Positions 2,600 to 57,378 of a stretch of DNA of 64,000 bases are shown here, in pieces. Source of the DNA: an uncultured bacterium (GTDB lineage Bacteria; Zixibacteria; MSB-5A5; CAIYYT01); the NCBI GenBank assembly GCA_963726455.1, contig CAVSCK010000003.1:512001-576000 (forward strand). Reading direction: 5' to 3'. The stretch's first letter is position 1. Each line of letters begins with the position of its first letter. The translations under genes and the position numbers were made by a program. Below the pieces are notes generated by a model. The model made no database searches and was not told the origin of the DNA. It saw nothing but the letters and a program-made list of their open reading frames with translations.

Positions 2600-2757
2600 A
2601 TCTCCATCTTTAGTTTTGCTCAAGATTTGTAACTAAAAAGCAATCCTTGTCAACTCGTGAATTCGGAGATATGCGCTAACACGCGCAATTAAACGGTTCC
2701 CGTTTGGGAGGTTGGCCTTTGGTCGCCTTCGACGAGACATCTCTACAGGAGTTTAGA
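2600..2757 (+). promoter_or_regulatory. Conserved structured 5' leader, copy 2
   Basis: Paralogous to 1868-2024. Confidence 0.55.
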
Positions 2758-15558: not shown

Positions 15559-15667
15559 GCGACCGCTCTGATAAGCGAGACATCGTTTTAGCCCTGACAT
15601 CACACGCACATTACGTATATTGTATGATGGTGTCGGCGGTCGACGAACGGACGGCGGCAAAACTATT

Positions 15668-16417: not shown

Positions 16418-16467
16418 GCCATCTACCCCAATTGTGCACGTTACATAATGAGGCCATCCGCAAAAAC

Positions 16468-16493
16468 AAAAGCCCCGCCGGTGGCGGGGCTTT
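16468..16493. terminator. Probable bidirectional terminator between pcm and ppdK
   Basis: AAAAGCCCCGCC-ggt-GGCGGGGCTTT. Confidence 0.8.
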
Positions 16494-16514
16494 CTATTAA
16501 CAGTCGTGACTGAG

Positions 16515-19343
16515 CTACTTCTTCTTTGGTTTGTCGTCCTTCCCTGCCTGACGTTCCCTGATCGCAATTTGCGCAGCCGCCAGACGAGCAATCGGAACTC
16601 GGAAAGGTGAACACGATACGTAATTCAGTCCCGTACGATGGCAGAAACCGATTGAATCGGGATCGCCGCCGTGCTCACCGCAGATACCGGTTTTGAGATT
16701 CGGCTTGACCGATCGCCCTTTGTCCACAGCCATTTTGATAAGTTGACCGACACCTGCTTGGTCAATCGTAACAAACGGGTCACGCGACAGGATGCCTTTT
16801 TCGTAATAATACCTGAGGAATTTGCCGGCATCGTCGCGCGAGAATCCCATCGTCATCTGCGTCAAATCGTTGGTGCCAAAACTGAAGAAATCGGCCTCCT
16901 GCGCGATCTCGTCCGCAGTCAGCGCCGCTCGTGGAATCTCGATCATCGTGCCAACCAAGTACGGAATCTCGAACTTGTACTTGCGAGTCATCTGTTCCCC
17001 GATCCGCACGATAATTTCTTTCTGGTTGGCCAACTCGGCTCGTTGTCCCACCAAGGGCACCATGATTTCCGGGAAGACGCGTTTGCCGTCTCTCATCAGC
17101 TCTGCCGCGGCCATGAAGATCGCCTTAACCTGCATCTCAGTAATCTCGGGATAGGTGATGCCAAGCCGGCAGCCACGGTGGCCAAGCATCGGGTTCTGTT
17201 CGTGCAGACTGTCGATACGGTCAAGAATCTTTCTCAGGCGGCCGATATCCTCCGATTTTTCGTTTGCAGTCTCGGCGTCCTGAATCTGCTTCAGAACGTC
17301 CTCGCGTTTGGGAAGAAACTCGTGCAGCGGCGGATCGAGCGTTCTGATCGTCACCGGCAGACCTTCCATCGCTTCGAAGATCGCTTTGAAGTCTGCTTTC
17401 TGGAACGGCAGGAGCTTGTCCAGCGACGCCTGACGTTCATCTTGCGTGGTTGCCAGAATCATCGCCTGAATGTGCGGTAGACGATTCTTGCCGAAAAACA
17501 TATGCTCGGTTCGGCAGAGCCCGATTCCTTCGGCGCCAAATTTACGCGCCAGTGCCGCATCACTCGGTGTATCGGCATTGGTGCGAATACCGATCGCGCG
17601 CACTTCGTCGGCCCAGGTCATGAACGTGCCAAATTCCCCGGAGAGTTCGGGGTCAATGGTCGGTACTTCGCCCAGCATGACTTCGCCGGTGGTGCCGTTG
17701 ATCGTGATGACTTCTTTGTCCTTTACCACCAGAGTTCCGATGGCAAATTGCCGGCGTGCCTCGTAAACGCGAACATCTTCGCAACCGGCCACGCACGGTT
17801 TGCCCATGCCGCGTGCAACCACGGCTGCGTGGGATGTCATACCACCGCGGGCGGTCAAAACGCCTTCGGCTGCAATCATGCCGGCGATGTCGTCCGGATT
17901 GGTTTCAGTTCGGACCAGGATGGTCTTCTCACCGCGTTCAGCCAGGCGAACGGCCTCATCGGCGTGAAATACAACTTTGCCGGACGCCGCTCCAGGTGAA
18001 GCCGACAGCCCGCGTGCAATCACTTCAACGTCGGCGTTGGGGTCGATACGTGGATGGAGAAGCTGATCGAGTTGCTCCGGCTGAATGCGCAGCAGCGCTT
18101 CGTCTTTGGTAATCAGCTTCTCGTGAACCATATCCACGGAAATCTTGACGGCGGCCTGCGCGGTGCGTTTGCCGGTGCGCGTCTGGAGCATGTACAACTT
18201 GTTCTCTTGAATCGTGAACTCAAAGTCCTGCACGTCGCGGTAGTGTTTTTCCAGTTTGCCGGTGATGTCTTTGAGTTGCTTATAGGCCTCCGGCATCACT
18301 TTCGCCAACTCAGTGATAGGTTGAGGCGTGCGAATACCCGCGACTACGTCCTCACCCTGCGCGTTAACCAGAAACTCGCCATAGAATTCCTTGTTGCCGT
18401 TGGAGGGATTGCGCGTGAAGCCAACACCGGTGGCCGACGAATCTCCCATATTGCCGAACACCATCGCCTGAATATTGACGGCGGTGCCCAGATCAGATGG
18501 AATGTGATTGGCGGCGCGATAGGTGATTGCCCGTGGCGAATTCCAACTGCGAAATACAGCATCGCGCGCCATCTGCAATTGCATCCAGGGATCAGTTGGA
18601 AACGGTTCGCCGGACTTGGCGGTGATCAGCTTCAGGAACTGCTTGACGATATCTTTCAGGTCGTCGATTGAAAGCGACGCGTCATGTTTGATCGAACGTT
18701 GTCTTTTCTTCTTGGTGATGATCTCCTCAAACTGATCTTTGTCAATACCAAGCACGACATTTCCGAACATGGAGATGAATCGGCGGTAGTTGTCATAAGC
18801 AAACCGAGGATTGTTGGTCTTGGCGATCAGTCCCTTCAAGGTCTCTTCATTTAGCCCGAGATTCAGGATCGTGTCCATCATTCCCGGCATCGAGAATTTG
18901 GCGCCCGATCGCACCGAAACCAGCAGTGGATTCTTGGCATCACCAAACCTGGCTCCCATCGCCTTTTCAAGATGCTCCATGATCTGCTTCATTTCGCGAT
19001 CAAACGTTTTCGGCAAAGACATCTTGTTGTCGTAGTAGAGACGACAAACTTCGGTGGAGATGGTGAATCCCGGTGGCACCGGAATTCCCAAATTAGTCAT
19101 CTCGGCGAGGCCGGCGCCTTTTCCTCCCAGCGTGTCTTTCATCGCACCATCACCTTCGGCCTTACCGCCGCCGAAAGAATAGAAGTATTTACCGCCGGGA
19201 AGCAGCGACGGCCTCTTCTTTTCGACCGGAAGTTCTTTGATTTGAACTCCGATTTTGCGGGGCTTCAAAGGTTTTGCGGCAATTGCTTTTGGTTTGGAGG
19301 CAACTTTCGGTTTACTCTTCGGCGTCACCTTTTTCTTTGCCAT
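16515..19343 (-). CDS. ppdK: Pyruvate, phosphate dikinase with Lys-rich N-terminal extension
   Basis: LGGKGA, SVRSGA, GGMTSHAAVVAR, GLCRTEHMF and GICGEHGG motifs. Confidence 0.97.
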   Translation of the reverse strand: MAKKKVTPKSKPKVASKPKAIAAKPLKPRKIGVQIKELPVEKKRPSLLPGGKYFYSFGGGKAEGDGAMKDTLGGKGAGLAEMTNLGIPVPPGFTISTEVCRLYYDNKMSLPKTFDREMKQIMEHLEKAMGARFGDAKNPLLVSVRSGAKFSMPGMMDTILNLGLNEETLKGLIAKTNNPRFAYDNYRRFISMFGNVVLGIDKDQFEEIITKKKRQRSIKHDASLSIDDLKDIVKQFLKLITAKSGEPFPTDPWMQLQMARDAVFRSWNSPRAITYRAANHIPSDLGTAVNIQAMVFGNMGDSSATGVGFTRNPSNGNKEFYGEFLVNAQGEDVVAGIRTPQPITELAKVMPEAYKQLKDITGKLEKHYRDVQDFEFTIQENKLYMLQTRTGKRTAQAAVKISVDMVHEKLITKDEALLRIQPEQLDQLLHPRIDPNADVEVIARGLSASPGAASGKVVFHADEAVRLAERGEKTILVRTETNPDDIAGMIAAEGVLTARGGMTSHAAVVARGMGKPCVAGCEDVRVYEARRQFAIGTLVVKDKEVITINGTTGEVMLGEVPTIDPELSGEFGTFMTWADEVRAIGIRTNADTPSDAALARKFGAEGIGLCRTEHMFFGKNRLPHIQAMILATTQDERQASLDKLLPFQKADFKAIFEAMEGLPVTIRTLDPPLHEFLPKREDVLKQIQDAETANEKSEDIGRLRKILDRIDSLHEQNPMLGHRGCRLGITYPEITEMQVKAIFMAAAELMRDGKRVFPEIMVPLVGQRAELANQKEIIVRIGEQMTRKYKFEIPYLVGTMIEIPRAALTADEIAQEADFFSFGTNDLTQMTMGFSRDDAGKFLRYYYEKGILSRDPFVTIDQAGVGQLIKMAVDKGRSVKPNLKTGICGEHGGDPDSIGFCHRTGLNYVSCSPFRVPIARLAAAQIAIRERQAGKDDKPKKK

Positions 19344-19480: not shown

Positions 19481-19804
19481 TCACATGGTAAACATCTTCT
19501 CGCCAGCAATAATCTTTTGCAGCATTTTCAGAGTTTTTTCGGCCGGAGAGTGCATCAGATCGTGCGTGTTGTACGTCAAGCGCGCCGAATCACGCTTGAA
19601 TTCTAAGGCGTTTCTGCCCTTGGCTCCGGGGAGTCGTTGTTTCTTTTTGTGCAACAGATTGTACTGGCGCTGGTACTCCTTGGCCTTTTCGCGATGAGCC
19701 AGATAGTACTGGCGCTGATATTCCTGTCGCCTCCGCTTCGCCTCTTCAGGAGAGAGAGGCTCTTTACGCCTACGGCGCGTCTTTGTGAGGGTTATTTTTG
19801 CCAT
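19481..19804 (-). CDS. Small, very basic hypothetical protein with a repeated EYQRQY helix
   Basis: ATG 19804 with GAAGGTGG RBS and its own promoter. Confidence 0.7.
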   Translation of the reverse strand: MAKITLTKTRRRRKEPLSPEEAKRRRQEYQRQYYLAHREKAKEYQRQYNLLHKKKQRLPGAKGRNALEFKRDSARLTYNTHDLMHSPAEKTLKMLQKIIAGEKMFTM

Positions 19805-19894
19805 CCCCACCTTCCCTGGCATAAGGTTAATAACTCAACCAACTGAGAAGGCCACTCACCTCTTGCGGCTCCTCAAAAACTTCCTGTTGCAACT

Positions 19895-20024: not shown

Positions 20025-20732
20025 CTAAGTGATCATCTTTATCCAGTCACGAATGTACTGTATCCTATAGATTAACAACGAGATACGCGCCATGACTGTG
20101 TATCCGAACGTCGCTCCGAATCCAATCATTAGAGTATAGATACCCAATTTGGCGGCTCCACCCCAAGCGCCCTTATGCGCCTTGGAGAAAAAGAAATATA
20201 TCAGCGACGACATGGTACCAACGATGACGACGACATCCCAAATCCCCTGCGGGACTCCAAGAAATCCAGCCGTACTCCAGTCGAATCCAAGCCCTATCGT
20301 CGTTCCGCGAAGCTGTGATAGCACGTTGTTCTTCATGGTAACGGGAATGGCAATACCGCTGGAGATACCCAGAAACAAGGCGAGCGGATAACGGCTTATC
20401 CAGGCATACTTTCTGGAAAATCGCGTCCACATTGCAATACCGAGCAGGGCAGGAATAATGTAGTAGAACTCATCGAATTTCGGCTTCCAGGTATTGTACT
20501 GCACTTTCGTGACCGGATCGACGGCAAAATCGAATAAGTGGCTAAGAAGATTGGGATTAATACCGTTGTAGTAAAGCAGAATGGCCCAGTAACCCACGGA
20601 GACACCCACTACCAAATGCTCCGCGAACTTATAGAAAGGATTGTCTTTGTATAGAAAAGAGAACAGGCAAAGCGTCAAGAAGACACCCACCGTTGTCCAA
20701 ATTATCGTGTCCGTGCTAAAAGTCTGTTCCAT
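20025..20732 (-). CDS. Module gene D3: polytopic membrane protein of unknown function
   Basis: FSFLYKDNPFYKFAE and YFFFSK.HKG...FGATFGYTVM.R shared with D1 and D2. Confidence 0.85.
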   Translation of the reverse strand: MEQTFSTDTIIWTTVGVFLTLCLFSFLYKDNPFYKFAEHLVVGVSVGYWAILLYYNGINPNLLSHLFDFAVDPVTKVQYNTWKPKFDEFYYIIPALLGIAMWTRFSRKYAWISRYPLALFLGISSGIAIPVTMKNNVLSQLRGTTIGLGFDWSTAGFLGVPQGIWDVVVIVGTMSSLIYFFFSKAHKGAWGGAAKLGIYTLMIGFGATFGYTVMARISLLIYRIQYIRDWIKMIT

Positions 20733-21589
20733 TATTTACTCTCCTGTTTCGGAGCGCTCTTGCGTTTGCTGAGGAAGAAAGCCAGGTTCCCCATAATAAT
20801 GAAGATGATAATCACCACATGCGCGAATACCTGTACTTTCATCGCCTCGGTTGCCGTTCCGGGATTCTTGCAGAGAGTCTCATATTCTGCAGCCCCTTTC
20901 ATCCCGCCGATGATTCCGAATATCTGCTTCGATTGATAGTAGGGGTAGTAGTCGGCCGCCATAACACCGGTCATCGCCAGTGCGAGCTTCACGTTATAAC
21001 GAGCGTTTCCATCAGCGACCCACATGTCCGAGACGTTGCCTGCCGACAGATTAATGACGCCTTTGATGTTGTCATAATTCTTGATACCGCGCATCATGGG
21101 AATGGAGTCAAGGGTGGTACCGTAGTAATCTTGCGGAAAAGGAATACGGAAATTCATACCCATGCCGAGGATGATAATGCCGGGATAGGGTTTGTAGCCG
21201 AGGTAGACATAATCGATCCCACGTTCAGGCTTGAACCCGTGATAGACCAGGCAGGAATCCGCCACGTCCCTTACGATTTCTTCGGCCATCTGAGCACCGG
21301 TCTGTGACAATGTGAGAGTGATTACCTTAAGTTTCTTGGCGTAGCACTGCTCCAGCATGGCATAGGCCACCGGGTTTAGTTCCGCCAATGAACCCGGATC
21401 GTAATCCAATGAGAGCAGGATATAGTCGCCCGGTTTCAGGGCTTCAATGAAGTCGTAGATTTCCCTGACTTCCTTGACCGGAGTCAGTGGAACAGTAAAT
21501 GGAATAAACAGTGGAGTGATAACAAAAACCAGTAACACCGCAAAAACCCAGCGGCGATCGAGAGCCAAAAGTCGGTCGTGAAATGTCAT
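20732..21589 (-). CDS. Module gene C3: membrane-anchored alpha/beta domain protein
   Basis: DYDP..E, DYVYLGY, YPY..GG.KGAAEYE and Q..AH..GN shared with C1 and C2. Confidence 0.85.
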   Translation of the reverse strand: MTFHDRLLALDRRWVFAVLLVFVITPLFIPFTVPLTPVKEVREIYDFIEALKPGDYILLSLDYDPGSLAELNPVAYAMLEQCYAKKLKVITLTLSQTGAQMAEEIVRDVADSCLVYHGFKPERGIDYVYLGYKPYPGIIILGMGMNFRIPFPQDYYGTTLDSIPMMRGIKNYDNIKGVINLSAGNVSDMWVADGNARYNVKLALAMTGVMAADYYPYYQSKQIFGIIGGMKGAAEYETLCKNPGTATEAMKVQVFAHVVIIIFIIMGNLAFFLSKRKSAPKQESK

Positions 21590-21601
21590 GCCATTCTCCT
21601 C

Positions 21602-22237
21602 TCAATCCTTGCCCAGGTATGAACGTTCAATACCCAGCACAATCTTTAGCGCGGTGGCAACCCCGCCCAGACCGACACCGATGAGGATTGCGCGTTTCGC
21701 GGCCAAATTCGGCACCATTAACATCCAACTACCCACCTGGTTGATCGGATCAGCGAGCGGTCCCGTCGGTATTACTCGCATCATCAACAGGAGAGCCGCG
21801 ACGAGCAATACCGTCGAGACAGCTGAACGGGCGCGAAAAGCGCGGTATGATGCCGAGGCGATATAGAACGCGAGCAATGCGAAGATGGTCGCCTGTATCG
21901 GGATGAAGATGTTGCTGTAAAGCAGGCGGAAGATCGTGCCGTTGAGACCGTTAAAGACCTGGGACCCCTTGATCGTAAGTCCAAAGACAATCATCGCAAA
22001 CATCGAGACCAGGACTACCACACTGTATTGCCAATCTTCGGAACGGCGCTTTATCTTGTAATAGCCGACGTGAATTTGCGACCAGATACCGAGTACCATC
22101 GCAAAAATACCGATTACCGTTAGCCCGTCTAAAGCCACTTCATAGAAGCGTAGCGATGGTTCGGACGGAACAAAGTACTGAATGGCCAGCAACACACCGA
22201 AAACGAAAACCAATATTAATGGAATCTGTTGTTTCAT
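21602..22237 (-). CDS. Module gene B3: polytopic membrane protein
   Basis: Start reassigned to MKQQIPL (GGAGG RBS); LAF..ASASYRAFRAR and LGIERSYLG shared with B1 and B2. Confidence 0.85.
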   Translation of the reverse strand: MKQQIPLILVFVFGVLLAIQYFVPSEPSLRFYEVALDGLTVIGIFAMVLGIWSQIHVGYYKIKRRSEDWQYSVVVLVSMFAMIVFGLTIKGSQVFNGLNGTIFRLLYSNIFIPIQATIFALLAFYIASASYRAFRARSAVSTVLLVAALLLMMRVIPTGPLADPINQVGSWMLMVPNLAAKRAILIGVGLGGVATALKIVLGIERSYLGKD

Positions 22238-22247
22238 GCCAACCTCC

Positions 22248-23495
22248 TCACCACCAGGGCGCGTCAAAGGGTTTACTGAGGAAATCTGCTCCAGTGAATA
22301 CCCGGAGAGCGAGAAGGACAACCATGCCGGCAAGCACGATGGCTTTGAGATAGTCTTGCGCTTTCAGCGTTCCGAGTAGCAGGGGCTCCCGGCCGAGATA
22401 GGCACTAGCAGCATACAGTTCCTCACCCAGCAGAGTATAGTCGCAAGCGACCACAAAGAAAGGCAGCTGCGAGACCTGGTCCGTGCCCGCGATTTGGATC
22501 GAACCGGCAAGGACTCCCGTTTCCGCCAGCAACAGCGATTCGGCGGCGAAATAACCGAGATAAATGTTGGTCGCCGGTTTTTCCCGGAGAATCGTTCCAT
22601 TGACTGCGGCGACGTACGGGAACTGCTGACTGGTCACGTAGTAGACGGAGTCTTCTTTGTAAGTGTCGGGCCGTCCCGCATCGGCATAGCCTGTCTTCAC
22701 GGTCTCCTGCGCAATGGTCATTACGACGGGATCACAGCAAGGGACAATCATCGAAGTCTGGTATTCTGCCACTTTGCGCGCCACGCGACCGAGCACGGTA
22801 AACGAGGCGATCGTGGCAATGTCTCCGGCGGTTCCAATTCCTAACACGTACAGGATCGGTTTGCCCATTTCGGTGGCACGACCGATAGCTTCATCAATGG
22901 CTTCGATACCCGCCAGCGGGCGCACATAAAGATCGATGCCCTTCTTGGCCATGTTGATTAATTTGACGGTCAGAATCAAGAAGATGATGCAGAAGAGTAG
23001 CTCCGGCATCTTCATAGAGTTGAACCAGTTGTCGTAGGCCTGTACGGGTCCGCCCGCTGCCGGTGCGCTCTTTCCGCCCGGGCCAACGGCATAGACGCGA
23101 TAGTACAGATTCGTGTTCTTCGGCAAATATTCGGGACTTGTCTTATCGCGGTTCCCTTTGTCCGCATAACTGGAATTTCCCAGAACGACTGTCCCCGCTT
23201 TCAGCCACGCCGAATCGGGAGCGTCGGGTGAAGTCGCGCGATAAATGTCATAACTGATCACGTTCTTCTTACCAGCGCCGTCATCAGGTGACAGGGTCCA
23301 TTTCACCTGGACACCATGGCCGTCATCGTTGGGAAGATCTTTTAGAGTTACATTAGAGGGCGGCGCGGGCGGTTCCGACGGGATCACCGCCGTTTCAGCG
23401 GGAGGGTCGGAGGTCGCCGTCTGCGCCAATATTGCCTGAGTAAGGCAAAGTGACATACAGATCAGGAGGAACAATATCAGATGTTTCACTTCCAC
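22248..23495 (-). CDS. Module gene A3: signal peptide, FN3-like domain, TM and DUF6754-like domain
   Basis: EAIDEAIGRATEMG and PFFVVACDYTLLGEELYAASAYL motifs; family name recalled, not searched. Confidence 0.85.
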   Translation of the reverse strand: MEVKHLILFLLICMSLCLTQAILAQTATSDPPAETAVIPSEPPAPPSNVTLKDLPNDDGHGVQVKWTLSPDDGAGKKNVISYDIYRATSPDAPDSAWLKAGTVVLGNSSYADKGNRDKTSPEYLPKNTNLYYRVYAVGPGGKSAPAAGGPVQAYDNWFNSMKMPELLFCIIFLILTVKLINMAKKGIDLYVRPLAGIEAIDEAIGRATEMGKPILYVLGIGTAGDIATIASFTVLGRVARKVAEYQTSMIVPCCDPVVMTIAQETVKTGYADAGRPDTYKEDSVYYVTSQQFPYVAAVNGTILREKPATNIYLGYFAAESLLLAETGVLAGSIQIAGTDQVSQLPFFVVACDYTLLGEELYAASAYLGREPLLLGTLKAQDYLKAIVLAGMVVLLALRVFTGADFLSKPFDAPWW

Positions 23496-23517
23496 CTCGC
23501 GTGGCTTAAGGATTTTG

Positions 23518-24336
23518 TCACAATATATTCAACCAGTCTCCGAAGAGAAAGGTAATTCTTCCCACCAGCAGCGAAATGCGCCCCATTACCGTGTATCCAA
23601 ACGACGCACCGAAGGTGATCATCAGAATCCAGATTCCGATTCGCGACGCGACACCAAAGGCGCCTTTGTGTTCTTTCGAGAAGAAGAAGTAGATCAGTCC
23701 GCACATCACGCCGACAAAGATTACCCAGTTAGTCAGGATAGCTATGAACTGTCCATCGGCGGCCAGCGACACATGGCTGATGAAATCGCCCACTCCTTTC
23801 CAGTCAACAAAGAGCGGAATGAATGAGTTGGCGACCTGACTGATAAAATCGGAACGGAGATAGCGAGTCAAGTTAAGGCCGGCGGTGGCGCCGATAATGA
23901 ATGCCAACGACCAACGCGACATCCAACCGACTTTGGGCATCAATCGCATCAGCAAAATCAAACCAAATATGATTGGTATGTAGATTAGGACGTGATCCGC
24001 CTGCGCCTGATATGGCACTTTGAAAAATTCCGACAGGGTCTGGGACGCGCGCGGCACGAAGTTGCCTACGACGGTACTCCAGAAGCCGTAGCACATCCAA
24101 TAGCCGGCTGAGATGCCGACGTACAGACTTTCTGCAAACTTGTAGAATGGATTGTCGCGATAGAGAAATGAGAATATTGATAGCGTCAGAAACACCGCGA
24201 AAGTGATCAGGAAGCCGTCGCGGATATTCATGAATTGTGATTCTGAAGTGCCACTGCTTGATTTGGTGATCCAGCTAATGACGAATACCAAAGCCACTAA
24301 GGCCATCACGATTCTGCCGGCGGTCTTCATGTTCAT
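23518..24336 (-). CDS. Module gene D2: polytopic membrane protein
   Basis: Paralog of D1 and D3. Confidence 0.85.
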   Translation of the reverse strand: MNMKTAGRIVMALVALVFVISWITKSSSGTSESQFMNIRDGFLITFAVFLTLSIFSFLYRDNPFYKFAESLYVGISAGYWMCYGFWSTVVGNFVPRASQTLSEFFKVPYQAQADHVLIYIPIIFGLILLMRLMPKVGWMSRWSLAFIIGATAGLNLTRYLRSDFISQVANSFIPLFVDWKGVGDFISHVSLAADGQFIAILTNWVIFVGVMCGLIYFFFSKEHKGAFGVASRIGIWILMITFGASFGYTVMGRISLLVGRITFLFGDWLNIL

Positions 24337-25241
24337 AATTTACCGCCCTTTTTGCGTGATCTGAAATAAGCCACATTACCAATTACTATGAATGCGATGA
24401 TAACCACGTGAGCCATGGTCTGCGGCCCCATCATGCGCAGAGCGGGCATCGGCTTCTTTTCGAAGCGTGGATAGGTCTTGAGCAGTTGTGATTCATACTC
24501 CGCGGCGCCCTTGGTTCCACCAAGCAAGCCCACGAGCTGTCGGGGCCAATAAGGGTACAGAAGCGGAGTTGAGACCGCCGCCGAGCCGCCTGCCGTCGGC
24601 ACCTTGCCCGGATCGCCCGCAAACAGCACCCATTCCTTCACACCTGGTTTACCGCCGCCAACGGAAATCAGCAAATCCATATCCTTGAGCGACTGGACAT
24701 CCTTGAACATCGGCAGCGAATCGAGCGAATTGCCATAGGCGTCAGAGGGAAACATCTTGCGGAAATTCGTAATGACAACATTAAGTACGCCCTCGTTGCC
24801 GGCTTTGTACCCGAGATTGCAGTAGTCTACCCCGTACTTGGCATCGGGAAAATCCGGTTTGAGAACCTGGTCCAGACTCAACCTAAGCAATGACTGCCCG
24901 GTTGCCCAAAGTGACATAAAGTAGAGTCGGTGCTTCTTTTCGAGAATGTGCCTGATAAAAGCATCGGTCATCGGCTGAACTTCCGGTGCCATGGCGGGAT
25001 CGAAGTCGTAAGACAGCACAATTTTCGATCCGGGCGGCAGACTCTCGATCTTGTCGAACACATTCTTCACGATCGGAGTTGCGACTTCGCCGAATTCAAG
25101 TCGGAAAATGATCGCCAGCGCCACCGTCAGTCCGACGAACAAGTACACAATACGCCGGTCAACATCGCGGCCTTTAATGGACAGGTAGAGAATCCAAAGC
25201 AGCCCGCCACCGATAACGATAATCGAAACTATCAGACCCAT
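24333..25241 (-). CDS. Module gene C2
   Basis: Start reassigned to ATG 25241 (GGAGG RBS, just after the B2 stop); paralog of C1 and C3. Confidence 0.83.
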   Translation of the reverse strand: MGLIVSIIVIGGGLLWILYLSIKGRDVDRRIVYLFVGLTVALAIIFRLEFGEVATPIVKNVFDKIESLPPGSKIVLSYDFDPAMAPEVQPMTDAFIRHILEKKHRLYFMSLWATGQSLLRLSLDQVLKPDFPDAKYGVDYCNLGYKAGNEGVLNVVITNFRKMFPSDAYGNSLDSLPMFKDVQSLKDMDLLISVGGGKPGVKEWVLFAGDPGKVPTAGGSAAVSTPLLYPYWPRQLVGLLGGTKGAAEYESQLLKTYPRFEKKPMPALRMMGPQTMAHVVIIAFIVIGNVAYFRSRKKGGKL

Positions 25242-25242
25242 C

Positions 25243-25917
25243 TCAACTATCCCCTCCCAGGTAGCTGCGCTCAATGCCCAGTAGCAGGCGTAGCGACATC
25301 GAAATTACCCCCAGCGAGATTCCAATCATGATGGCACGTTGTCCGGCCAGGTTAGGGGCATTCATAATCCAAATTGCCAGATTGGGAATTTGCAGCACCG
25401 AGAGCTGATCCGGCACCCAATTTGTCAAGAGCACGCCCAGTGCCGTTCTCCCTAACAAAATTATGAACGCGGCAACAAGAAGTATCGTGGCTTCGGTATT
25501 CTTGGCACGGAATGCCCGATACGATGCGGACGCGACAAAGAAAGCCAGCAGCGCGTACATCGTCGAATTCAGCGGCGACATGACGTATTGGAATAGAAGC
25601 TGGAAGTAAGAGCCCGTTTGCGAAAGATCGCCTGAGATACCCCCGGAATTGCCAAGCTTGAACAGCCCGGTCGCCAGCATCAGACCAAAGCCAAATAGAG
25701 TAACGATTGAATAGCCCCAGTCCTCTGATTTGCGGCTGATCTTTTCGGTATGAACGCGAATGAGGTTGCCACCACCAAGGAAGAACGCGAATACGGCGAT
25801 TATGTCGAAATAGAGTGAAGCATCTTCCTGCAAGTATTTGGCCGAAGGCACAAACACCGACACGACCAGCAGTGTGCCGACCGCGGAGAGAATAAGCATG
25901 GGAATCTGGCGTTTCAC
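25243..25917 (-). CDS. Module gene B2
   Basis: Paralog of B1 and B3. Confidence 0.85.
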   Translation of the reverse strand: MKRQIPMLILSAVGTLLVVSVFVPSAKYLQEDASLYFDIIAVFAFFLGGGNLIRVHTEKISRKSEDWGYSIVTLFGFGLMLATGLFKLGNSGGISGDLSQTGSYFQLLFQYVMSPLNSTMYALLAFFVASASYRAFRAKNTEATILLVAAFIILLGRTALGVLLTNWVPDQLSVLQIPNLAIWIMNAPNLAGQRAIMIGISLGVISMSLRLLLGIERSYLGGDS

Positions 25918-25932
25918 TGTCTTGTCTTACTC

Positions 25933-27201
25933 CTAGCCCGTCGAGAACATCTCACGCAGCACTTTTTCAACCCAAACCATGGAACCCCATCCCCAGGCGC
26001 TGGCAATAGTTGTGGCAATCACGCCGACCAATATCACGATCATGGCAATGGCTTTGCCGACATCCTGCCCTTTGAGCGAGCCCATTTGGCGCGGTTCTTC
26101 CGAAAGATAAGCCGATGCGGCAAACAGTTCTTCGCCGATCAATGTGTAATCACAGGCAGCGACAAAGAAAGGCAACTGCGCTGGCATGGCGGTTCCGGCG
26201 ATTTGAATCGCACCTATTGAGTTACCGGTTTCGGCCATAATCAGCGATTCGGCGAAAAACGCCCCCAGGAAGAAACAGGCCGCGGGTTTTTCGCGTACCA
26301 TGATGCCGTCAACGGCCGCAACAAATCCGAACTGCTCGTCGGTGACATAATGAACCATGTCATCGTTATAGGCATCCGGCCGACCGGCAGTCACATAGGC
26401 CTGCTTGATCGTCTCGCGCGCGGCAGTCATCACCAGCGACGCACGCACCGGCATATTGATCTTGGTGTCGTACTCCGCCACGGTGCGGGCGATTCTTCCC
26501 AGAATCGTCAGTCCCGCAATCGTCTGCACATCGTCCATATCCTGAATACCGGCAACGAAGAGAATCGGGCGCCCCATCTCGGTTGCGCGACCGACGGCTT
26601 CATCAATGGCCTCCAAGCCGGCGATGCGGCGCAGAAATAATTTTGTGCCTCGCTTAGCGCTTTCGATAAACAGAATCACCGCGCCGCAGAAAATGACGCC
26701 GATGATCAACACCCAGGCCAACCGCGTATCGAACCACTGCTTCTCAGATTGAGCGGGCGCCGAAGGTTCGGAGGTTACCTTGTTGTTGTTGACCAGGGCG
26801 GCAACAGTGTAAGTATAGCTGCTGTCATCGGATGTATTTCTATCTTCGTAGGAACGGGTCGCAAATGGAGCAACGTCGATCGAGTCGATCTTATTGGAGA
26901 TGACGTTCGTGCGCCGGATTTCGAAGCCCCGGAAATTGTCGAGCTTTTCGTAACCGGGATCCTTCCATTCGACAGTGATCGAACCACCGGCATCGTTGTC
27001 GGTATCGAAGGCCTTGACAGTTACGGCGCCTAGATTGGGAATGGTCTGAACGGGCGTTGACGGCAGCAACGGCTTAAGTGTGTCACTCGTCGGCGTCGCA
27101 CTTTCGACCGCGAGTAGACAACCACTCAAAGAAATGAATAGTACCGTAACCAGGAGAAATATGAGGGCATCAAGCTTCGCAATGCGAAGGGGTGCTGTCA
27201 T
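25933..27201 (-). CDS. Module gene A2 (FN3-like plus DUF6754-like)
   Basis: Paralog of A1 and A3. Confidence 0.85.
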   Translation of the reverse strand: MTAPLRIAKLDALIFLLVTVLFISLSGCLLAVESATPTSDTLKPLLPSTPVQTIPNLGAVTVKAFDTDNDAGGSITVEWKDPGYEKLDNFRGFEIRRTNVISNKIDSIDVAPFATRSYEDRNTSDDSSYTYTVAALVNNNKVTSEPSAPAQSEKQWFDTRLAWVLIIGVIFCGAVILFIESAKRGTKLFLRRIAGLEAIDEAVGRATEMGRPILFVAGIQDMDDVQTIAGLTILGRIARTVAEYDTKINMPVRASLVMTAARETIKQAYVTAGRPDAYNDDMVHYVTDEQFGFVAAVDGIMVREKPAACFFLGAFFAESLIMAETGNSIGAIQIAGTAMPAQLPFFVAACDYTLIGEELFAASAYLSEEPRQMGSLKGQDVGKAIAMIVILVGVIATTIASAWGWGSMVWVEKVLREMFSTG

Positions 27202-27207
27202 AAAATG

Positions 27208-27864
27208 CTATTTAACCAGTTTCAGCCAGTCGGTGAGCAAGAAATCAATTCGTCCCAACAGGAGCGACATACGGCTCATGACCGTGTATCCGAATGACGC
27301 GCCGAAGGTGATCATCAAGAACCAAGTGCCGACTTTGGCGGCTCCGCCAAAAAGGCCCTTGTGCTCTTTCGAGAAGTAGAAATAGATAAGACCCGTGATC
27401 GTACCGATTACAATCACAAATCGTCCAATAATTTCGTAGCTGTTCCCCGACGCGACTGCTGCGACCGTGTCGACGACCGTCCCGTGGACCTGAGCCACGG
27501 CATTGGTTGAGAAGTAGGTCATCATTCTCAAACCGACCGTGGCACCGACGATGAACGCCAGCGGCCAGCGCGCAATCCAGCCCGCCTTGCCGATAAGGCG
27601 AGTGAGAAGCATTACGCCGAGGATGATACCGCCAATAAACCAATAATCCGGGTCAGGGAGACCCTGAGCGTCTAGATGATTAATACCACTGACGATCGGT
27701 CGATACAGACTATCCCAGAAATAAGTAATGAACCAGAATCCGGCAGAAATTCCGATGAATATCGCCTCGGAGACCTTATAGAAAATATTGTCCCGATACA
27801 GGAATGAGACAATTCCGAGGGTCAAGAGAGCAGCGAGCCAGATGCCAATCAATGTGCTGTCCAT
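27208..27864 (-). CDS. Module gene D1
   Basis: Own ATG at 27864 (MDSTLIGIW); shown in the ORF track fused to C1 because of a frameshift. Confidence 0.82.
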   Translation of the reverse strand: MDSTLIGIWLAALLTLGIVSFLYRDNIFYKVSEAIFIGISAGFWFITYFWDSLYRPIVSGINHLDAQGLPDPDYWFIGGIILGVMLLTRLIGKAGWIARWPLAFIVGATVGLRMMTYFSTNAVAQVHGTVVDTVAAVASGNSYEIIGRFVIVIGTITGLIYFYFSKEHKGLFGGAAKVGTWFLMITFGASFGYTVMSRMSLLLGRIDFLLTDWLKLVK

Positions 27865-27875
27865 CGGATTCCCTT

Positions 27876-28860
27876 CTATTCCCTTACTTCCTTGCGTTTG
27901 CCAAGGAAGAGTGCCACGTTGCCGATGATAATAAAGGCAATCACTACGATATGAGAAAAGGACTGGGCGAGTATGTAAGTTGTTGCTTTCGCCTATCTCG
28001 CCGGTTGCCATTTCAAATTCGGCTGCGCCCGTCATACCACCCGCGAGCCCTTTTAGTTTTCCTGAACTCAGGTAGGGATACACCGACGGCGCTTGAACAG
28101 CGGTGTTGCCGGCGCCAAGATCCTTGCCAAAACGATCGACGGCAATCTGCACCCATTCGACAGTGCCCGGATAGCCGGCGGAGAAATTGATTACGTAATC
28201 AATGTTGCTGAAATTTTCTACTCCTTTGAGCAAAGGAATGCTGTCATACAGAGTGTTGTAAATGTCACGCGGGAAAGGATCGCGGAATGATCTCCCCATA
28301 CGCTGAACCAGAAATTCGTTGCCCGATTGGAATCCGAGATTGACGTAATCAGTCCCGTACTTCAGATTCATCTTCTTTACTTCCGGTTCCTCCAGGGCTC
28401 TGACCACCGACATATTGGCCTGCTGAGGTCCCTGAGGCCACAAACCCATGATAATAACCTTCAGGCCATGCTTGAACGCGTATTTCATAAATGCATCAGC
28501 CATCGGTTGCAGTTCCGGCGCTGAAGGGGGATCATAATCAAATGCCGCCAAGACTTTCGAACCGGGCTCGAGCTTGGTAATCGCGTCGTAAAGCAATTGA
28601 ACTTCGGGAGAAATCTTCACCGGCGGGCGGAAACTCATGAAGAATGGAAGTGTCAGTGAAACGGCGATAAAGACAAACACTGTGCGCCTGCCAACCGGTC
28701 TACCTATGATAGTCAGTATGAGCATGCCGACAAGGGCAAGGAACAACAAGACCGTTACGACAACTGAAACGGATGATGAGAAAGAAAGGGGCTTGGGGAG
28801 CACGATAATCAAGATCAGTAATCCAAGCAGCACGAACCAAGGGGTATACTTCTTCATCAT
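27876..28860 (-). CDS. Module gene C1 (one extra base near 27990)
   Basis: Removing one base at ~27990 restores KATTYILAQSFSHIVVIAFIIIGNVALFLGKRKEVRE*, matching the C2 and C3 C-termini. Confidence 0.82.
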
Positions 28861-29531
28861 CAGCCTTCCAGATGTGACCTTTCAATACCGAGCATGATTC
28901 GGAGCGCCGTCGATGCCGTGCCAAGAGCAATGCCTATCATGACTGCGCGCTGCCCTGCGGTCTGGGGAAATGCCATCAGCCAATTAGAGAGATCGGAGAG
29001 TCGATAACCCTCTGGCATGAATCCCGTTAGTAAGTCACCGACAGGCACCCTGCCTATCATCACAAAGAAAGCCGCAAGCAACAGCAGTGTCGCTTGCAGG
29101 TTCCGGGCTCGGAAAGCTCGATAAGAAGCCGAAGCCACGAAGAACGCCAAGATCGCGAACATCGTTGACGAAAGCGGCGTATAGACGTATTGATACATCC
29201 AGTCAAAATGGGTTCCTGGATCGCGGAATGAGCCGGGCGGATTCATCCCCAGACCTTTGAAGCCGTCATAGGCGCCGACGGCAACCATAATAAGGAAACA
29301 AACGATAATTATGAGTGAGATCGGCCAATCCTTCGCCTTTCGGGAGATATTGAACAACTGAATCTTCAAGAGACTGAGTGCCCCTAACCAAACAGCGAAC
29401 GCGCCTGCCATGGCGAACCAGAGATTGAAAATCTGTTCTGATCGGCTGAAGGGATCATGAGGGATAAAATATGAAACAAGGAATACGAGTCCGGCGACGA
29501 ATGTGATGATTAAGGGTACTTCGCGTTTCAT
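28860..29531 (-). CDS. Module gene B1
   Basis: Paralog of B2 and B3. Confidence 0.85.
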   Translation of the reverse strand: MKREVPLIITFVAGLVFLVSYFIPHDPFSRSEQIFNLWFAMAGAFAVWLGALSLLKIQLFNISRKAKDWPISLIIIVCFLIMVAVGAYDGFKGLGMNPPGSFRDPGTHFDWMYQYVYTPLSSTMFAILAFFVASASYRAFRARNLQATLLLLAAFFVMIGRVPVGDLLTGFMPEGYRLSDLSNWLMAFPQTAGQRAVMIGIALGTASTALRIMLGIERSHLEG

Positions 29532-29549
29532 ATCTATAAACTCAATTGA

Positions 29550-30767
29550 CTAACTTATCTTCAAGAGTAAATCTGCCAGATTGATATTGAATATCGCCAG
29601 AATAAGCAGCACTACAATCGCCAGCATGAAAAGGCCCTTCGCAAAGTCCTGTCCCTTAAGCGAACCCAAGAGTCGAGGTTCTCTCTCGAGATAGGCGCTT
29701 GCCGCAAACAGCTCTTCTCCAATCAGTGTGTAATCGCAAGCAGCCACAAAGAACGGAATCTGCGCCGGCTGGTTGGTACCGGCAATCTGAATAGCACCGG
29801 CTTCGTTTCCGGTCTCTACCAAAATCAGTGACTCAGCAAAGAACCCCCCCAGATAGAACATGGTAGCCGGTTTCTGGCGCATGACCATGCCGTCGATCGC
29901 CGCCGCATACCCAAACTGGTCATCGGTGACGTAGTGCACCATGTCTTCCTTGAAGGCATCAGGCTTGCCGACTTTGCTGTAGGCTTCTCTGACCGCCTCT
30001 TTGGCCGTCATCATCACGAGTGACTTGGATACAGGTACGTCGAGCTGAGTTTCGTTCTGAGCACAGATACGCGCAACGCGACCCAGGATCGTGATGGCAG
30101 CAATAGTGGCAACGTCATCCAAGTCCTGAATGCCCGGGACGAAAAAGACCTTGCGACCCATTTCCGTCGCCCGGCCGATGGCATCGTCTACAGCATCAAT
30201 GCCGGCGATTTTGCGGACATAGAGCTCTTTGCCGGACTTGGCCTGATAGATATAAAACAAAATCGCAATGGAGACCACGATCGTCCAAATCAAGATGTTC
30301 ATCCGGCGCATATTGAACCACTGCGCGATTGGCTTCACCGGCCCAACTGTCTCCGATTCACTCCTGCCCGCCACCACGGTACTGTCTGCCTTGTTCAGGT
30401 CACTGACCGCAGCAATCCTGTAATAATAACTCGAATCCATGGTTACGTTGTTATCAGTAAATGCGTTTTGCCCTTTCGTGGTCTCACCGACGACTACGAA
30501 CGGTCCGCCTGTCGATGTTGAACGCAGGACCTGATATTTGGTCACTAATCGCTGATCATCCGCCGAAAGCTGCCAACTGACGTCCAGAGCCGAGCCATTG
30601 TCATTCGGCGTGTCTTCGGCAACGACGTTGGTTGGTGGCGCCGGATTCTCAGTTGTGACTTGAACGGATTTAGCTGAATCGACAGGAGTATTTGTCTGAG
30701 AGAAGATCGGGGTGCAGAGCAGGAGAATTACTGCGATCAAGAAGACGGATATTCTGAGACGCCGCAT
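29550..30767 (-). CDS. Module gene A1 (FN3-like plus DUF6754-like)
   Basis: Signal peptide, DTPNDNG FN3-like domain, DAIGRATEMG; GGGAG RBS. Confidence 0.85.
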   Translation of the reverse strand: MRRLRISVFLIAVILLLCTPIFSQTNTPVDSAKSVQVTTENPAPPTNVVAEDTPNDNGSALDVSWQLSADDQRLVTKYQVLRSTSTGGPFVVVGETTKGQNAFTDNNVTMDSSYYYRIAAVSDLNKADSTVVAGRSESETVGPVKPIAQWFNMRRMNILIWTIVVSIAILFYIYQAKSGKELYVRKIAGIDAVDDAIGRATEMGRKVFFVPGIQDLDDVATIAAITILGRVARICAQNETQLDVPVSKSLVMMTAKEAVREAYSKVGKPDAFKEDMVHYVTDDQFGYAAAIDGMVMRQKPATMFYLGGFFAESLILVETGNEAGAIQIAGTNQPAQIPFFVAACDYTLIGEELFAASAYLEREPRLLGSLKGQDFAKGLFMLAIVVLLILAIFNINLADLLLKIS

Positions 30768-32003: not shown

Positions 32004-33237
32004 TCAGGCGCACTGAAGCACCTGATTGGCGCTGTCCAGCACCACCGCTATATCGCATTTCGTTCCATGTCTTTCCATTAGTTTTTCCACAGCCGGTTCA
32101 AGTTCCGGCCACGGCTCAATCGGTATGAACTCAAGGTCGGATGCGGGCAGTTTCGAAACCAGCATCAGTTTGAGCCGCTCAGATAATCTTTCCGTCCGCT
32201 TGACTTTGTGAATCCCCATCAGCAGCCATTCCGACTGGCCGTCAACCCGCAACTCACCATTTGCCGATCTCTCCGCCAATTTCAGAAATCTGGCGTCGCC
32301 GGTACCCTCAACGCACCCGGAGACTAACAATATCGTACCATCCGATTTTACCGCGGAAGCCACGTTTTCGTAAGATTTCTGCAATTGATATAGATTCTTG
32401 TCCAGAGGCGGATAGACGACGCAGATCGCCACGTCGTACGGGGAGCCAACATTGTGAGCATAGTTGGCCTTAACAAAGTCGCAAGCGCTGTCGTACGCTT
32501 TGTCCCAATCACCTGCCGACAGGTGGAATACCGTTCCGTGGTGATCGCAGACAATCTGAATCGCAAAACGTCTCTTGTAATCGAGGCACGTGGTGCGAGA
32601 ACGGATATCTTCCCATACCGGATTCCCTCGCCTGTGCCAATGGCTGGCTCTTTGAACTCAGCGCGTTTGCATGATTGCGGGAAACATCGGCGAATGATGC
32701 ACAACCGGGCAGAATGATCTTGCGCCCGCCCGTGAATCCGGCGAAGTAATGCGGCTCGACTGAGCCGATTATCAATACCGAATCGCTCTGTTCGAACAGC
32801 TTATTGAGACTTACCGTGTTGGCGCCGCTGCCGAACTCGGCCAACTGATTTTCGTCGAAGGCGCTGTGAATGTGAATCCGATCCGCGAAGCGCTCATAGA
32901 ATCTGCCGAAGATTCTGCGCAGTTGCGTGTCATCAGGCGCACCGTGCAACGCGGTCGCTACAAGAAATGTGGTGTTGACTTGAGACAGCGAATCACCCAG
33001 GACGTCGAGCACGCGCGCTGTCGGTGTAGGTCGACAATGATCGTTGACGACGACCAGCAATTGCTGCGAGTTTTTCAGGAAGTCCGTGAGATCGGTGGGC
33101 AGCTTGCCGGTCGCAAGCCAGTTATCGTTCCCCAGCGAAGTAAGCCGCTTTTGAGGCAAATCGAAGAGGTCAACCCGACAAGTATCAGGCAAACTCAACT
33201 CAACATCCTTGTCGCAATACCAGATGGGAGTCCTCAT
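32004..33237 (-). CDS. larA: LarA-family nickel-pincer racemase/epimerase (frameshift near 32628)
   Basis: ND..RPTP, EPHYFAGFTGGRK..LPG and NH motifs; the shifted frame resumes GNPVWED...NLYQ..K...GIHK. Confidence 0.82.
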
Positions 33238-57312: not shown

Positions 57313-57378
57313 ATTTGACCAATATACGCCATTCGATAGATGACACAAGCAGCCAGTTAGATGGATGTAAGGTTACGA

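Follow-up and report, generated by a model that had tools for sequence, protein, structure and literature searches.

The region 20025-30767 of the analysed stretch of DNA (the window, 64,000 nucleotides in all) contains three head-to-tail copies of a four-gene membrane module, A-B-C-D, on the minus strand (ORF survey, Table 1). This threefold repeat is far beyond chance. The module is part of a larger conserved gene set with its own ATPase, observed in many bacterial phyla. The set is widely conserved and has no described function; no paper on the system was found in the literature search, and a full-text search found none that mentions DUF6754 or PF20539. The twelve genes would encode a single kind of four-subunit inner-membrane module in three subtypes of ancient origin. 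Our tentative explanation is that one cytoplasmic ATPase, common to all copies, drives these modules, which would be interchangeable and would probably serve translocation.

The array and its four gene families

Eleven ORFs of 200 aa or more fill the array on the minus strand, with gaps of -32 to +22 bp between adjacent genes. This confirms the triplicated A-B-C-D order of an earlier note on this DNA, with gaps of at most 22 bp. The same note counted twelve genes. Three full A-B-C-D sets are indeed present, but C1 is frameshifted, so the assembly reads C1 through into D1 as a single 550-aa ORF (27208-28860). The frame of C1 is intact up to approximately 27991 and is lost between this position and 27965; the C-terminal membrane helix resumes in another frame and ends at a stop at 27876, next to the D1 start at 27864. 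In another genome of the same genus (G008), C1 is intact and D1 is separate. A scan for sigma-70 promoters produced 12 sites, compared to 10.7 +/- 3.8 in shuffled sequences, and none within the 266-bp gap upstream of A1, so that the single promoter proposed earlier found no support.

Table 1. Genes of the array, its downstream neighbours, and partner genes elsewhere in the genome
Feature	Position	Strand	Description
A1	29550..30767	-	405 aa; PF20539 E 2.5e-117; motifs present; signal peptide, FN3, membrane helix, cytoplasmic DUF6754 domain, membrane helix
B1	28860..29531	-	223 aa; polytopic membrane subunit; 36-42% identity with B2, B3; no Pfam family above cut-off
C1	27876..28860	-	membrane helix, periplasmic Rossmann-like domain, membrane helix; frameshifted
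D1	27208..27864	-	218 aa from ATG at 27864; polytopic membrane subunit
A2	25933..27201	-	422 aa; PF20539 E 4.1e-127; AlphaFold2 model
B2	25243..25917	-	224 aa; approximately six membrane helices (topology inferred)
C2	24333..25274	-	313 aa; AlphaFold2 model and fold searches
D2	23518..24336	-	272 aa; polytopic; no Pfam family
A3	22248..23495	-	415 aa; PF20539 E 6.5e-112
B3	21602..22237	-	211 aa from ATG; listed ORF begins further upstream, TTG at 22333
C3	20732..21589	-	285 aa; ORF and paralog identity
D3	20025..20732	-	235 aa; ORF and paralog identity
Small, very basic ORF	19481..19822	-	113 aa; after the array; kept in Zixibacteria, where it lies between D3 and PPDK
Pyruvate phosphate dikinase (PPDK)	16515..19343	-	lineage-specific downstream neighbour; context only
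GlmL-like ATPase and X375	contig C5 186138-189248		same genome
S0, S1	contig C3 764855-765876		same genome; two small membrane proteins

The paralogs are 44-45% identical in A (BLASTP, E 1e-97 to 1e-120), 36-42% in B, 33-36% in C and 35-44% in D. The best E-value in the six between-type BLASTP comparisons is 0.027. Profile-profile comparison shows no relation between A and C or between B and D, and thus the four genes form distinct families. The copies had been described as diverged but motif-keeping, and indeed, at 33-45% identity, every motif quoted for them is kept in each of the three.

A1, A2 and A3 match DUF6754 (PF20539) over 247-251 of 257 profile positions, at 373-423 bits, and the short A of module 4 scores 388.7 bits (gathering cut-off 27 bits). 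The resemblance to this family, pointed out in the earlier note, is therefore firm (E-values in Table 1). Pfam assigns DUF6754 no function, and the entry covers A alone and not its obligate partners B-D. For the latter three there is no match in Pfam or NCBIfam, nor on the sequence level to any solved structure. The DUF6754 domain has 41 invariant columns among 134 sequences. An invariant histidine is absent from A, B and D; the one in C, H289, lies inside the last membrane helix, and cysteine C350 of A is nearly invariant only. The motif scan found no CxxC or CxxCH patterns in the array proteins, in agreement with the earlier observation that redox motifs are absent. A Walker-A-like pattern turns up a single time, in the FN3 part of A3, which faces outward and is not conserved.

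The topology of the subunits was derived from hydropathy and charge. It places the invariant motifs SASYRAFRA and GIERS of B2 at the cytoplasmic face. More generally, the conserved motifs of B and D are predicted to face the cytoplasm, and their outer loops are variable.

The larger gene set and its ATPase

DUF6754 was found in all 201 genomes sampled from the phylum, which is Zixibacteria according to the record titles. Presence in every sampled genome of a phylum makes a defence island unlikely. Elsewhere, the order A-B-C-D is kept at 93 of the 99 A genes with at least 4.3 kb of sequence available downstream. Among 101 sampled Planctomycetota genomes, the 28 that encode A are precisely those that encode D. 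Six of 38 long D homologues are C-D fusions. These observations support the treatment of A-D as one unit, and no match to an already characterised system was found. Twenty loci have three matched modules, and positions 1, 2 and 3 in them correspond to three clades (20/20, 19/20 and 20/20, respectively). Judging by these sequences, all three copies are maintained, as had been supposed, and the subtypes are ancient.

Outside the Zixibacteria lineage the cluster has the order S0-S1-GlmL-like ASKHA ATPase-X375-A-B-C-D. The part from the ATPase to D is seen in loci labelled as Planctomycetota, Acidobacteriota, Fermentibacteria, Aegiribacteria, Phycisphaerae and Zixibacteria. X375, a protein of 375 aa, is encoded in 26 of 28 A-positive and 0 of 73 A-negative Planctomycetota genomes. 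Of its 108 long homologues, 107 are ATPase-X375 fusions and one is fused to A; a fusion of these genes is likewise seen in locus L066. Among the 50 loci with room upstream, 22 have the GlmL-like ATPase or X375 within 4.5 kb of the first A, and in 28 the array has neither adjoining it. Genomes G000, G045 and G208 have one ATPase and one X375 versus five or six A genes. In the genome considered here the parts of the system are scattered, and no ATPase gene lies beside the array within the window. The 113-aa ORF that follows the array is unrelated to S0 and S1 and is listed as context only.

The ATPase sequences contain the ASKHA phosphate motifs DxGSTTTK and DIGGATTD. The ATPase of the system matches PF13941 over positions 1-450 (E 7.8e-131, 436.6 bits versus a cut-off of 27), but falls below all three NCBIfam GlmL cut-offs (TIGR01319, NF040745 and NF040744), with scores of 166.6 versus 204.05, 227.9 versus 475 and 221.6 versus 600. 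Thus the protein is a relative and not an equivalog. The PF13941 and NCBIfam GlmL matches are shared with the GlmL/MutL accessory proteins of glutamate mutase and ornithine aminomutase (PF13941, TIGR01319). However, the ATPase of this system is approximately 620 aa long, compared to 450-460 positions in the GlmL models, and it is fused to or adjoins X375 and membrane genes, not mutase genes; in this genome it is encoded outside the window. The scanned flanking proteins included no families of B12-dependent mutases. Between phyla, X375 keeps 47-71% identity, and on sequence comparison the cytoplasmic parts, X375 and the DUF6754 domain, are the most conserved portion of the system. Quite likely, A-D work together as a single unit and are coupled to the ATPase-X375 pair.

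Predicted structures and outward-facing domains

The AlphaFold2 model of A2 (pLDDT 88.3) has a helix at residues 7-28, an FN3 domain at 61-143, a membrane helix at 159-183, a Rossmann-like domain at 194-367 and a membrane helix at 370-403. The model of C2 (pLDDT 95.2, pTM 0.91) consists of membrane helices 3-33 and 40-56, a Rossmann-like domain 64-273 and membrane helix 277-309. Both proteins are thus modelled with a sirtuin/DHS-like Rossmann domain, which would lie in the cytoplasm in A and in the periplasm in C. Conceivably, each module combines two halves of opposite topology, A+B with the Rossmann domain inside the cell and C+D with this domain outside.

Sirtuins are the only structural matches of the DUF6754 domain, FN3 matches aside. 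Residues 193-366 of A2 align to Sir2Af2 (1yc2_D) over 140 residues with Z 11.5 and rmsd 3.4, and the domain also aligns to 1s7g (Z 11.4) and 1ma3 (Z 10.9). However, the identity to Sir2 is 11%, the model has no zinc-ribbon subdomain, there is no Pfam sirtuin match, and the domain lies between two membrane helices. The C domain matches transhydrogenase domain III (Z approximately 8) and the CODH epsilon subunit (Z 8.5), values that sit within a flat list of generic Rossmann folds. No profile-level homology to the sugar-phosphate-binding eIF2B/MtnA (IF-2B) fold was found: hhalign against an alignment of 21 MtnA-like proteins covered 30 columns with probability 2.7% for A, and the probability for C was 0.1%.

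The outward-facing parts (FN3, beta-propeller) differ between homologues. FN3, PQQ (BamB-like) beta-propeller or RHS domains are present in 692 long A forms, 27 D forms have an insert of approximately 350 aa, one B homologue has an FG-GAP insert, and one lone A is fused to Peptidase_S49.

Possible modes of action

The following mechanism may be suggested. ABCD would be the membrane half of the system, with A as a bitopic, receptor-like subunit carrying the cytoplasmic DUF6754 Rossmann domain, C as a bitopic subunit with the periplasmic Rossmann-like domain, B as a polytopic subunit of approximately six membrane helices, and D as the second polytopic subunit. The proposed cytoplasmic half, the ATPase and X375, is encoded elsewhere in the genome, as are S0 and S1. 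The single-copy ATPase-X375 pair would bind A at its DUF6754 domain, and B and D at their invariant cytoplasm-facing motifs, and turnover of ATP would alter the conformation of the ABCD bundle. On the periplasmic side, the C domain and the variable FN3, beta-propeller or FG-GAP decorations would engage an extracytoplasmic substrate. Most likely, this substrate would then be carried across the inner membrane. The paralogous modules would handle different substrates with one common engine, like S-components sharing an ECF module. In Zixibacteria, where the tandem order of the three subtypes is fixed, a single hetero-oligomer might even be formed from all three.

The genetic logic, one ATPase and one X375 for five or six membrane modules, resembles that of ECF and ABC importers, as does the combination of two polytopic subunits with an outward-facing alpha/beta domain. 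On the other hand, A-D have no ABC ATPase, no conserved Walker A and no ABC/ECF membrane family, and the ATPase of the system has the actin/Hsp70 (ASKHA) fold. An ABC transporter proper was rejected, as A-D have no Pfam match to an ABC ATPase or membrane domain. Several observations count against transport in general. No subunit of A-D has a recognised transporter fold or family, and we know of no transporter class powered by an ASKHA ATPase. The GlmL-family names refer to accessory proteins of B12-dependent mutases, not motors, which counts against a motor role. Receptors and envelope machines carry FN3 and beta-propeller decorations more often than solute carriers do. The 28 loci with no adjoining ATPase or X375 and the scattered parts in this genome also speak against an ATPase-driven transporter. 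Thus the assignment of the ABCD unit as a transporter is rather tentative.

One alternative, which we consider somewhat unlikely, is an envelope machine or mechanotransducer, in which the ATPase-driven ABCD unit transmits force or signal to periplasmic or outer-membrane partners. Its role could be to assemble, anchor, remodel or sense polymers or proteins of the surface, as in FtsEX, MacB-type or Tol/Ton systems. The variable extracytoplasmic binding modules (FN3, PQQ/BamB-like beta-propeller, RHS, FG-GAP, Peptidase_S49) are consistent with this, as are the predicted topology of B and D, conserved inside and variable outside, and the genes for a TonB-dependent receptor, ExbB and ExbD directly downstream in three Fermentibacteria/Aegiribacteria loci. 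A stator of the MotA/ExbB/TolQ type was rejected: B and D have no MotA_ExbB match, and the true ExbB and ExbD are separate genes in these three loci. However, the flanks of 23 loci from other phyla contain no conserved periplasmic or outer-membrane partner gene, and each of the five or six paralogous modules would require its own. Moreover, the commonest labelled phyla of related Atlas clusters are Chloroflexota and Bathyarchaeota, which, if correct, argues against a role tied to the outer membrane.

It is improbable that the system is an ion-translocating energy converter, similar to Rnf/Nqr or transhydrogenase, coupling a cytoplasmic reaction to an ion gradient. A would then be the anchored dinucleotide-binding Rossmann subunit, C the anchored periplasmic domain, B and D the six-helix subunits of approximately 200 aa, and X375 the NqrA/RnfC-like peripheral protein. 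The likeness to Na+-NQR, Rnf and transhydrogenase lies in the anchored alpha/beta domains on both sides of the membrane and the two small six-helix subunits. The fold matches of A and C point the same way, including the DHS-like fold that the modelled A domain would have in common with domain III of the proton-translocating transhydrogenase. A minority of long X375 homologues have precomputed RnfC_N or NQRA_N matches, suggesting a similar barrel, and one Atlas cluster bears the name RnfC barrel-sandwich. TCA-cycle and PPDK genes are found near the array in this lineage. However, A-D match no Rnf-Nqr, PNTB, flavin or FeS family and lack cysteine and cofactor motifs. A search of PDB with the X375 profile (E up to 1) yielded neither NqrA nor RnfC chains, and membership in Rnf/Na+-NQR was rejected on these grounds. 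The resemblance to transhydrogenase is one of fold, with no sequence family match, and the C-domain scores are those of generic Rossmann folds. The ATPase, the variable surface domains and the five or six paralogs are unlike bioenergetic pumps, and the neighbourhood is not kept outside the lineage.

The model of the earlier note, an ATP-independent four-subunit complex whose paralogs differ in specificity, read here as a self-sufficient secondary transporter, is now more improbable still. The absence of an ATPase gene beside the array in this window and the 28 loci without a nearby ATPase pair agree with it, as do the ancient, maintained subtypes. However, the module is genomically and phyletically tied to the GlmL-like ASKHA ATPase (PF13941) and X375, by the co-occurrence of X375 with A, by the gene order kept in many phyla and by the chain of fusions ATPase-X375, X375-A and C-D. 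A simple carrier would also leave the large, highly conserved cytoplasmic domain of A unexplained. The same note took the neighbouring amino-acid and dicarboxylate genes as a hint of solute uptake. This link is not supported, as malate dehydrogenase is upstream in only one of 20 related loci, and PPDK was seen downstream only in Zixibacteria-type arrays. Solute uptake by ABCD is possible.

Finally, a PEP-dependent, PTS-like group translocator fed by EI/HPr or PPDK-type phosphotransfer is highly improbable: module 4 does follow DprA-HPr-PtsI-PGI/PMI in four of six Zixibacteria genomes examined, PPDK follows the triple array, and this genome encodes EI, HPr and four EIIA_2 domains, with no EIIA-man and neither of the two EIIC families searched (PTS_EIIC and EII-Sor), but the partner outside Zixibacteria is the GlmL-like ATPase and not PTS genes, and the conserved neighbourhood also includes DprA and MetK, so that the proximity of HPr and PtsI may be plain synteny. 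PTS enzyme II was rejected for A-D, which have no PTS family match and no invariant phosphorylatable histidine or cysteine in the cytoplasmic domains.

Returning to the ATPase-driven modules, there is a modest chance that they represent a new class of primary-active membrane machines, in which an engine of ATPase, X375 and S0/S1 plugs into ABCD modules and the ATPase is of the ASKHA (GlmL-like) and not the P-loop type. If true, this would be a previously unrecognised class, run by an actin/Hsp70-fold engine instead of a P-loop ATPase.

The triple array and its surroundings

The array lies on the minus strand, where 11 ORFs of at least 200 aa occupy 20025-30767 in the order A1-B1-(C1+D1)-A2-B2-C2-D2-A3-B3-C3-D3, with intergenic gaps of -32 to +22 bp. 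This tight spacing by itself suggests that the twelve genes are co-transcribed. A consensus promoter scan gave 12 sites against 10.7 +/- 3.8, which is not above chance, and none of them falls in the 266-bp gap upstream of A1. Paralogs of the same type share 44-45% (A), 36-42% (B), 33-36% (C) and 35-44% (D) identity in BLASTP comparisons (E 1e-42 to 1e-120), and the motifs listed in the earlier note are all kept in the three copies. The best of six cross-type comparisons among A-D had only E 0.027, and profile-profile comparison found no relation between A and C or between B and D.

The same genome contains five ABCD modules: the three in the window, module 4 on contig C1 and a frameshifted module 5 on contig C4. 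In the window, the C1 and D1 genes form one 550-aa ORF, solely because of a frameshift in C1 between approximately 27991 and 27965. The C-terminal membrane helix that is normal for C still follows, in a different frame, up to a stop at 27876; the start of D1 is at 27864. In another genome of the same genus (G008) C1 is intact and D1 is separate. Since other genes in the window also look split or truncated, the frameshift may equally well be an assembly indel or a real mutation. Together with the split or truncated LarA-like, lyase and module 5 A genes, it suggests either assembly indel errors or several pseudogenes.

The PPDK neighbour of the array and the small basic ORF ahead were seen in Zixibacteria-type arrays only. 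These and other features are listed in the table.

Features of the window, of the same genome and of related loci, with coordinates
Feature	Location	Strand	Remarks
Two small RRM-domain RNA-binding proteins	window 2025-2360 and 2704-3066	+	close together
TPR-CHAT protein	window 5869-8913	-	1014 aa
Very basic 113-aa ORF	window 19481-19822	-	no family; between D3 and PPDK; 14 Zixibacteria loci (custom HMM)
10-of-12 promoter-like site	window 19923-19895		just upstream of the 113-aa ORF
LarA-like gene, in two ORFs	window 32004-32432 and 32509-33237		looks split
Beta-eliminating lyase	window 46367-47023		profile positions 132-287 only; looks truncated
PAS-domain protein	window 57361-62253	+	1630 aa; many PAS domains, LuxR-type C-terminus
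Module 5 A gene, in two pieces	same genome, contig C4 793270-794017		
S0-S1	same genome, contig C3 764855-765876		
EI, HPr and four EIIA_2-domain genes	same genome, contigs C1 83549-85622; C3 676319, C5 549936, C4 1721684, C3 465949		
Tandem triple of DUF6754 genes	WOR-3 genome G208, contig C1 2063297-2071459		spacing ~3.7 kb; six DUF6754 genes in the genome
Fused ATPase-X375 paralog	genome G206, contig C32 171354-174167		964 aa; second version of the system
TonB-dependent receptor, ExbB, ExbD	loci L075, L093, L094, ~12400-17200	same as D	after D; Fermentibacteria, Aegiribacteria
Lone A	locus L023, 10321-12708	-	795 aa; no B, C or D nearby; outward-facing C-terminus fused to Peptidase_S49 (SppA-like)

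Conservation of the module and its ATPase partner

The suggestion of the earlier note that A resembles DUF6754 was borne out, as A1-A3 match PF20539 with E 1e-112 to 1e-127. Its view of A-B-C-D as a unit also holds outside the window. Sequence of 4.3 kb or more is available downstream of 99 A genes, and in 93 of these cases B, C and D follow in order. Two of the six exceptions are halves of one split A ahead of a frameshift-split C (locus L037); one, at L057, is a lone A fused to a peptidase, and the others are L046, L098 and L107. A and D occur in exactly the same 28 of 101 sampled Planctomycetota genomes, and 6 of the 38 long homologues of D are C-D fusions; the cultured species Calycomorphotria hydatis is the source of one such fusion.

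DUF6754 was found in all 201 genomes sampled from the phylum of the window (108/108 genera) and in none of 14 control genomes; most of the positive genomes have about five matches. A pattern scan with one genome per species gave at least 599 stretches, at least 592 of them confirmed. The best 79 loci are labelled as Zixibacteria, Planctomycetota (including Gimesia), Acidobacteriota, Gemmatimonadota, Eisenbacteria, Marinisomatota, Fermentibacteria, Aegiribacteria, Cloacimonadota, WOR-3, Coatesbacteria, Stahlbacteria and others. The D-family profile matched 2823 representatives at 50% identity (2108 at E <=1e-10) among 1.84 billion.

By best match to the copies in the window, modules 1, 2 and 3 stand in this order at 15 of 20 fetched loci. 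A FastTree tree of concatenated A, B, C and D proteins (1087 columns, midpoint root only) includes 20 loci with three matched modules. The position-1 modules form one clade in 20/20 cases, with weak basal support (0.28), and so do 19/20 position-2 and 20/20 position-3 modules, both with support 1.0. With this root, systems from other phyla that have a single module branch next to type 2 or type 3. As the clades follow array position, the three copies are ancient subtypes and not recent duplicates. A tandem triple also occurs outside Zixibacteria, in the WOR-3 genome.

Analysis of the flanks demonstrates that the ABCD module is half of something bigger. In other phyla the gene order is S0-S1-ATPase-X375-A-B-C-D, where S0 and S1 are small membrane proteins, the ATPase is GlmL-like (PF13941, ~620 aa), and X375 is a 375-aa protein of no family. 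Many Zixibacteria have the ATPase-X375 pair ahead of their three modules, encoded either on the strand of the array or divergently. Fifty loci extend 3.8 kb or more upstream of their first A; the pair lies within 4.5 kb upstream of it in 22 of them and is absent there from 28. In the genome considered here it is on contig C5. Of the 28 Planctomycetota genomes with A, 26 also have X375, against 0 of the 73 others; the two A-positive genomes without a match have A on short contigs. The identity of X375 across phyla is 47-71%. Long X375 homologues are ATPase-X375 fusions in 107 of 108 cases and an X375-A fusion in the remaining one, which could be a read-through. The pair is single-copy, whereas modules are multiple: one ATPase and one X375 against 5-6 A genes in genomes G000 and G045 and in the WOR-3 genome. 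Beyond the eight genes, the flanks of 23 loci from other phyla have nothing in common, except for TonB-receptor, ExbB and ExbD genes at three related loci.

In some genomes the whole system is present a second time, in a more divergent form. In Planctomycetota, such second loci were observed in G231, G255, G274 and G291, with weaker A, D and X375 matches on separate contigs.

Predicted folds and the outer face

Five of the eight protein families of the system have no Pfam family. For B, C and D no Pfam family scored above the cut-off and no NCBIfam family matched, and scans of 54 individual B and 55 D sequences against Pfam gave scattered sub-threshold matches only. Against all PDB sequences, the A profile matched within its FN3 part only (titin, E 3.7e-22), B had one match (E 0.22), C four (E 0.35 or worse) and D none; the best match of the X375 profile had E 0.064. 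NQRA_N gave weak matches only, in 3 of the 31 genomes that were sampled from the class. S0 shows sub-threshold hints of a bacterial PH domain only, and a family scan of S1 found nothing.

In the A2 model (pLDDT 88.3), an N-terminal hydrophobic helix (7-28) and an FN3 domain (61-143) are followed by a Rossmann-like domain (194-367) that lies between two membrane helices (159-183 and 370-403). The DUF6754 domain is probably cytoplasmic, because a basic stretch follows the first membrane helix. When the complete A model was used for fold searches, FN3 matches crowded out everything else. In a second search the only non-FN3 matches were sirtuins: 1yc2_D (Z 11.5, rmsd 3.4 over 140 residues, model positions 193-366), 1s7g_A (Z 11.4) and 1ma3_A (Z 10.9). 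Foldseek gave weak matches to Nir2 LNS2 and TON1374 with rmsd of 18-28 A.

The C2 model (pLDDT 95.2, pTM 0.91) has membrane helices, a Rossmann-like domain (64-273) that is likely periplasmic because of the charge distribution, and a final membrane helix (277-309). Its best match is MT0777 (1kjn, Z 9.4-10.0), itself without known function, followed by the CODH epsilon subunit (Z 8.5) and by transhydrogenase domain III and sirtuins (Z ~8); the scores stay flat along a list made up of generic Rossmann folds. A relationship to eIF2B/MtnA was considered and rejected for both A and C. B has approximately six membrane helices by hydropathy, and the invariant motifs SASYRAFRA and GIERS of B and YRDNPFYKFAE and FSKEHKG of D are predicted at the cytoplasmic face. 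Complex prediction for A(158-415)+B+C(36-313)+D(40-272), with matched 134-row alignments, gave no verdict either way: D scored 0.69, 0.68 and 0.69, and partner-replaced controls 0.00 and 0.00, yet the C-replaced control scored 0.50.

The outer face is variable. There are 692 A homologues with a length of 740 aa or more; judging from the best 120 of them, additional FN3 domains, PQQ-type beta-propellers or RHS repeats precede a constant core of membrane helix, DUF6754 and membrane helix. One B contains an FG-GAP insert, and 27 D homologues have an insert of ~350 aa of no family.

Possible role of the system

The four families make up a membrane module of great age and wide distribution with a tight gene order, and its phyletic occurrence is tied to that of a GlmL-like ASKHA ATPase and X375. 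We tentatively consider translocation as the role of the system. The ATPase-X375 pair would dock on the DUF6754 domain as well as on the conserved motifs of B and D at the cytoplasmic face, and would power the module. An outside substrate would be handled by the periplasmic domain of C together with the variable decorations, and paralogous modules may differ in specificity.

A role in mechanotransduction or envelope assembly, which comes second, is rather unlikely. An ion converter similar to Rnf or transhydrogenase is improbable. The earlier note proposed an ATP-independent carrier, with solute uptake hinted at by the metabolic neighbours. This clue did not survive, as malate dehydrogenase is upstream at only one of 20 related loci, and we regard such a carrier as very improbable. 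A PTS-like translocator is hardly credible. Module 4 follows DprA-HPr-EI-PGI/PMI in four of six Zixibacteria genomes, but DprA and MetK are also conserved there, so the link to HPr and EI may be plain synteny. The PTS of the genome, with EI, HPr and EIIA_2 genes, is incomplete as far as seen, since PTS_EIIC, EII-Sor and EIIA-man, the families searched, were not found.

In the full-text library searched, there was no mention of DUF6754, PF20539, PF13941, TIGR01319, or glutamate mutase L with membrane, and the matches listed for GlmL with ATPase and membrane look unrelated, judging from the listing. Nor did the proteins match a transporter, stator, Rnf/Nqr or PTS family that is already known. 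A remote link to a known fold may emerge later, as B, D, X375 and the ATPase are known from sequence alone.

These are six to eight co-travelling genes in many bacterial phyla with no assigned function. Homologues in cultured planctomycetes, such as the C. hydatis fusion, make the question directly open to bench work. As the system is present in every sampled genome of the phylum, it is probably the basis of a trait that is central to abundant bacteria of sediments and soils. Coupling to the ATPase, if real, would be a new way of energising membrane work and would provide a function for one Pfam DUF and five families without Pfam entries.
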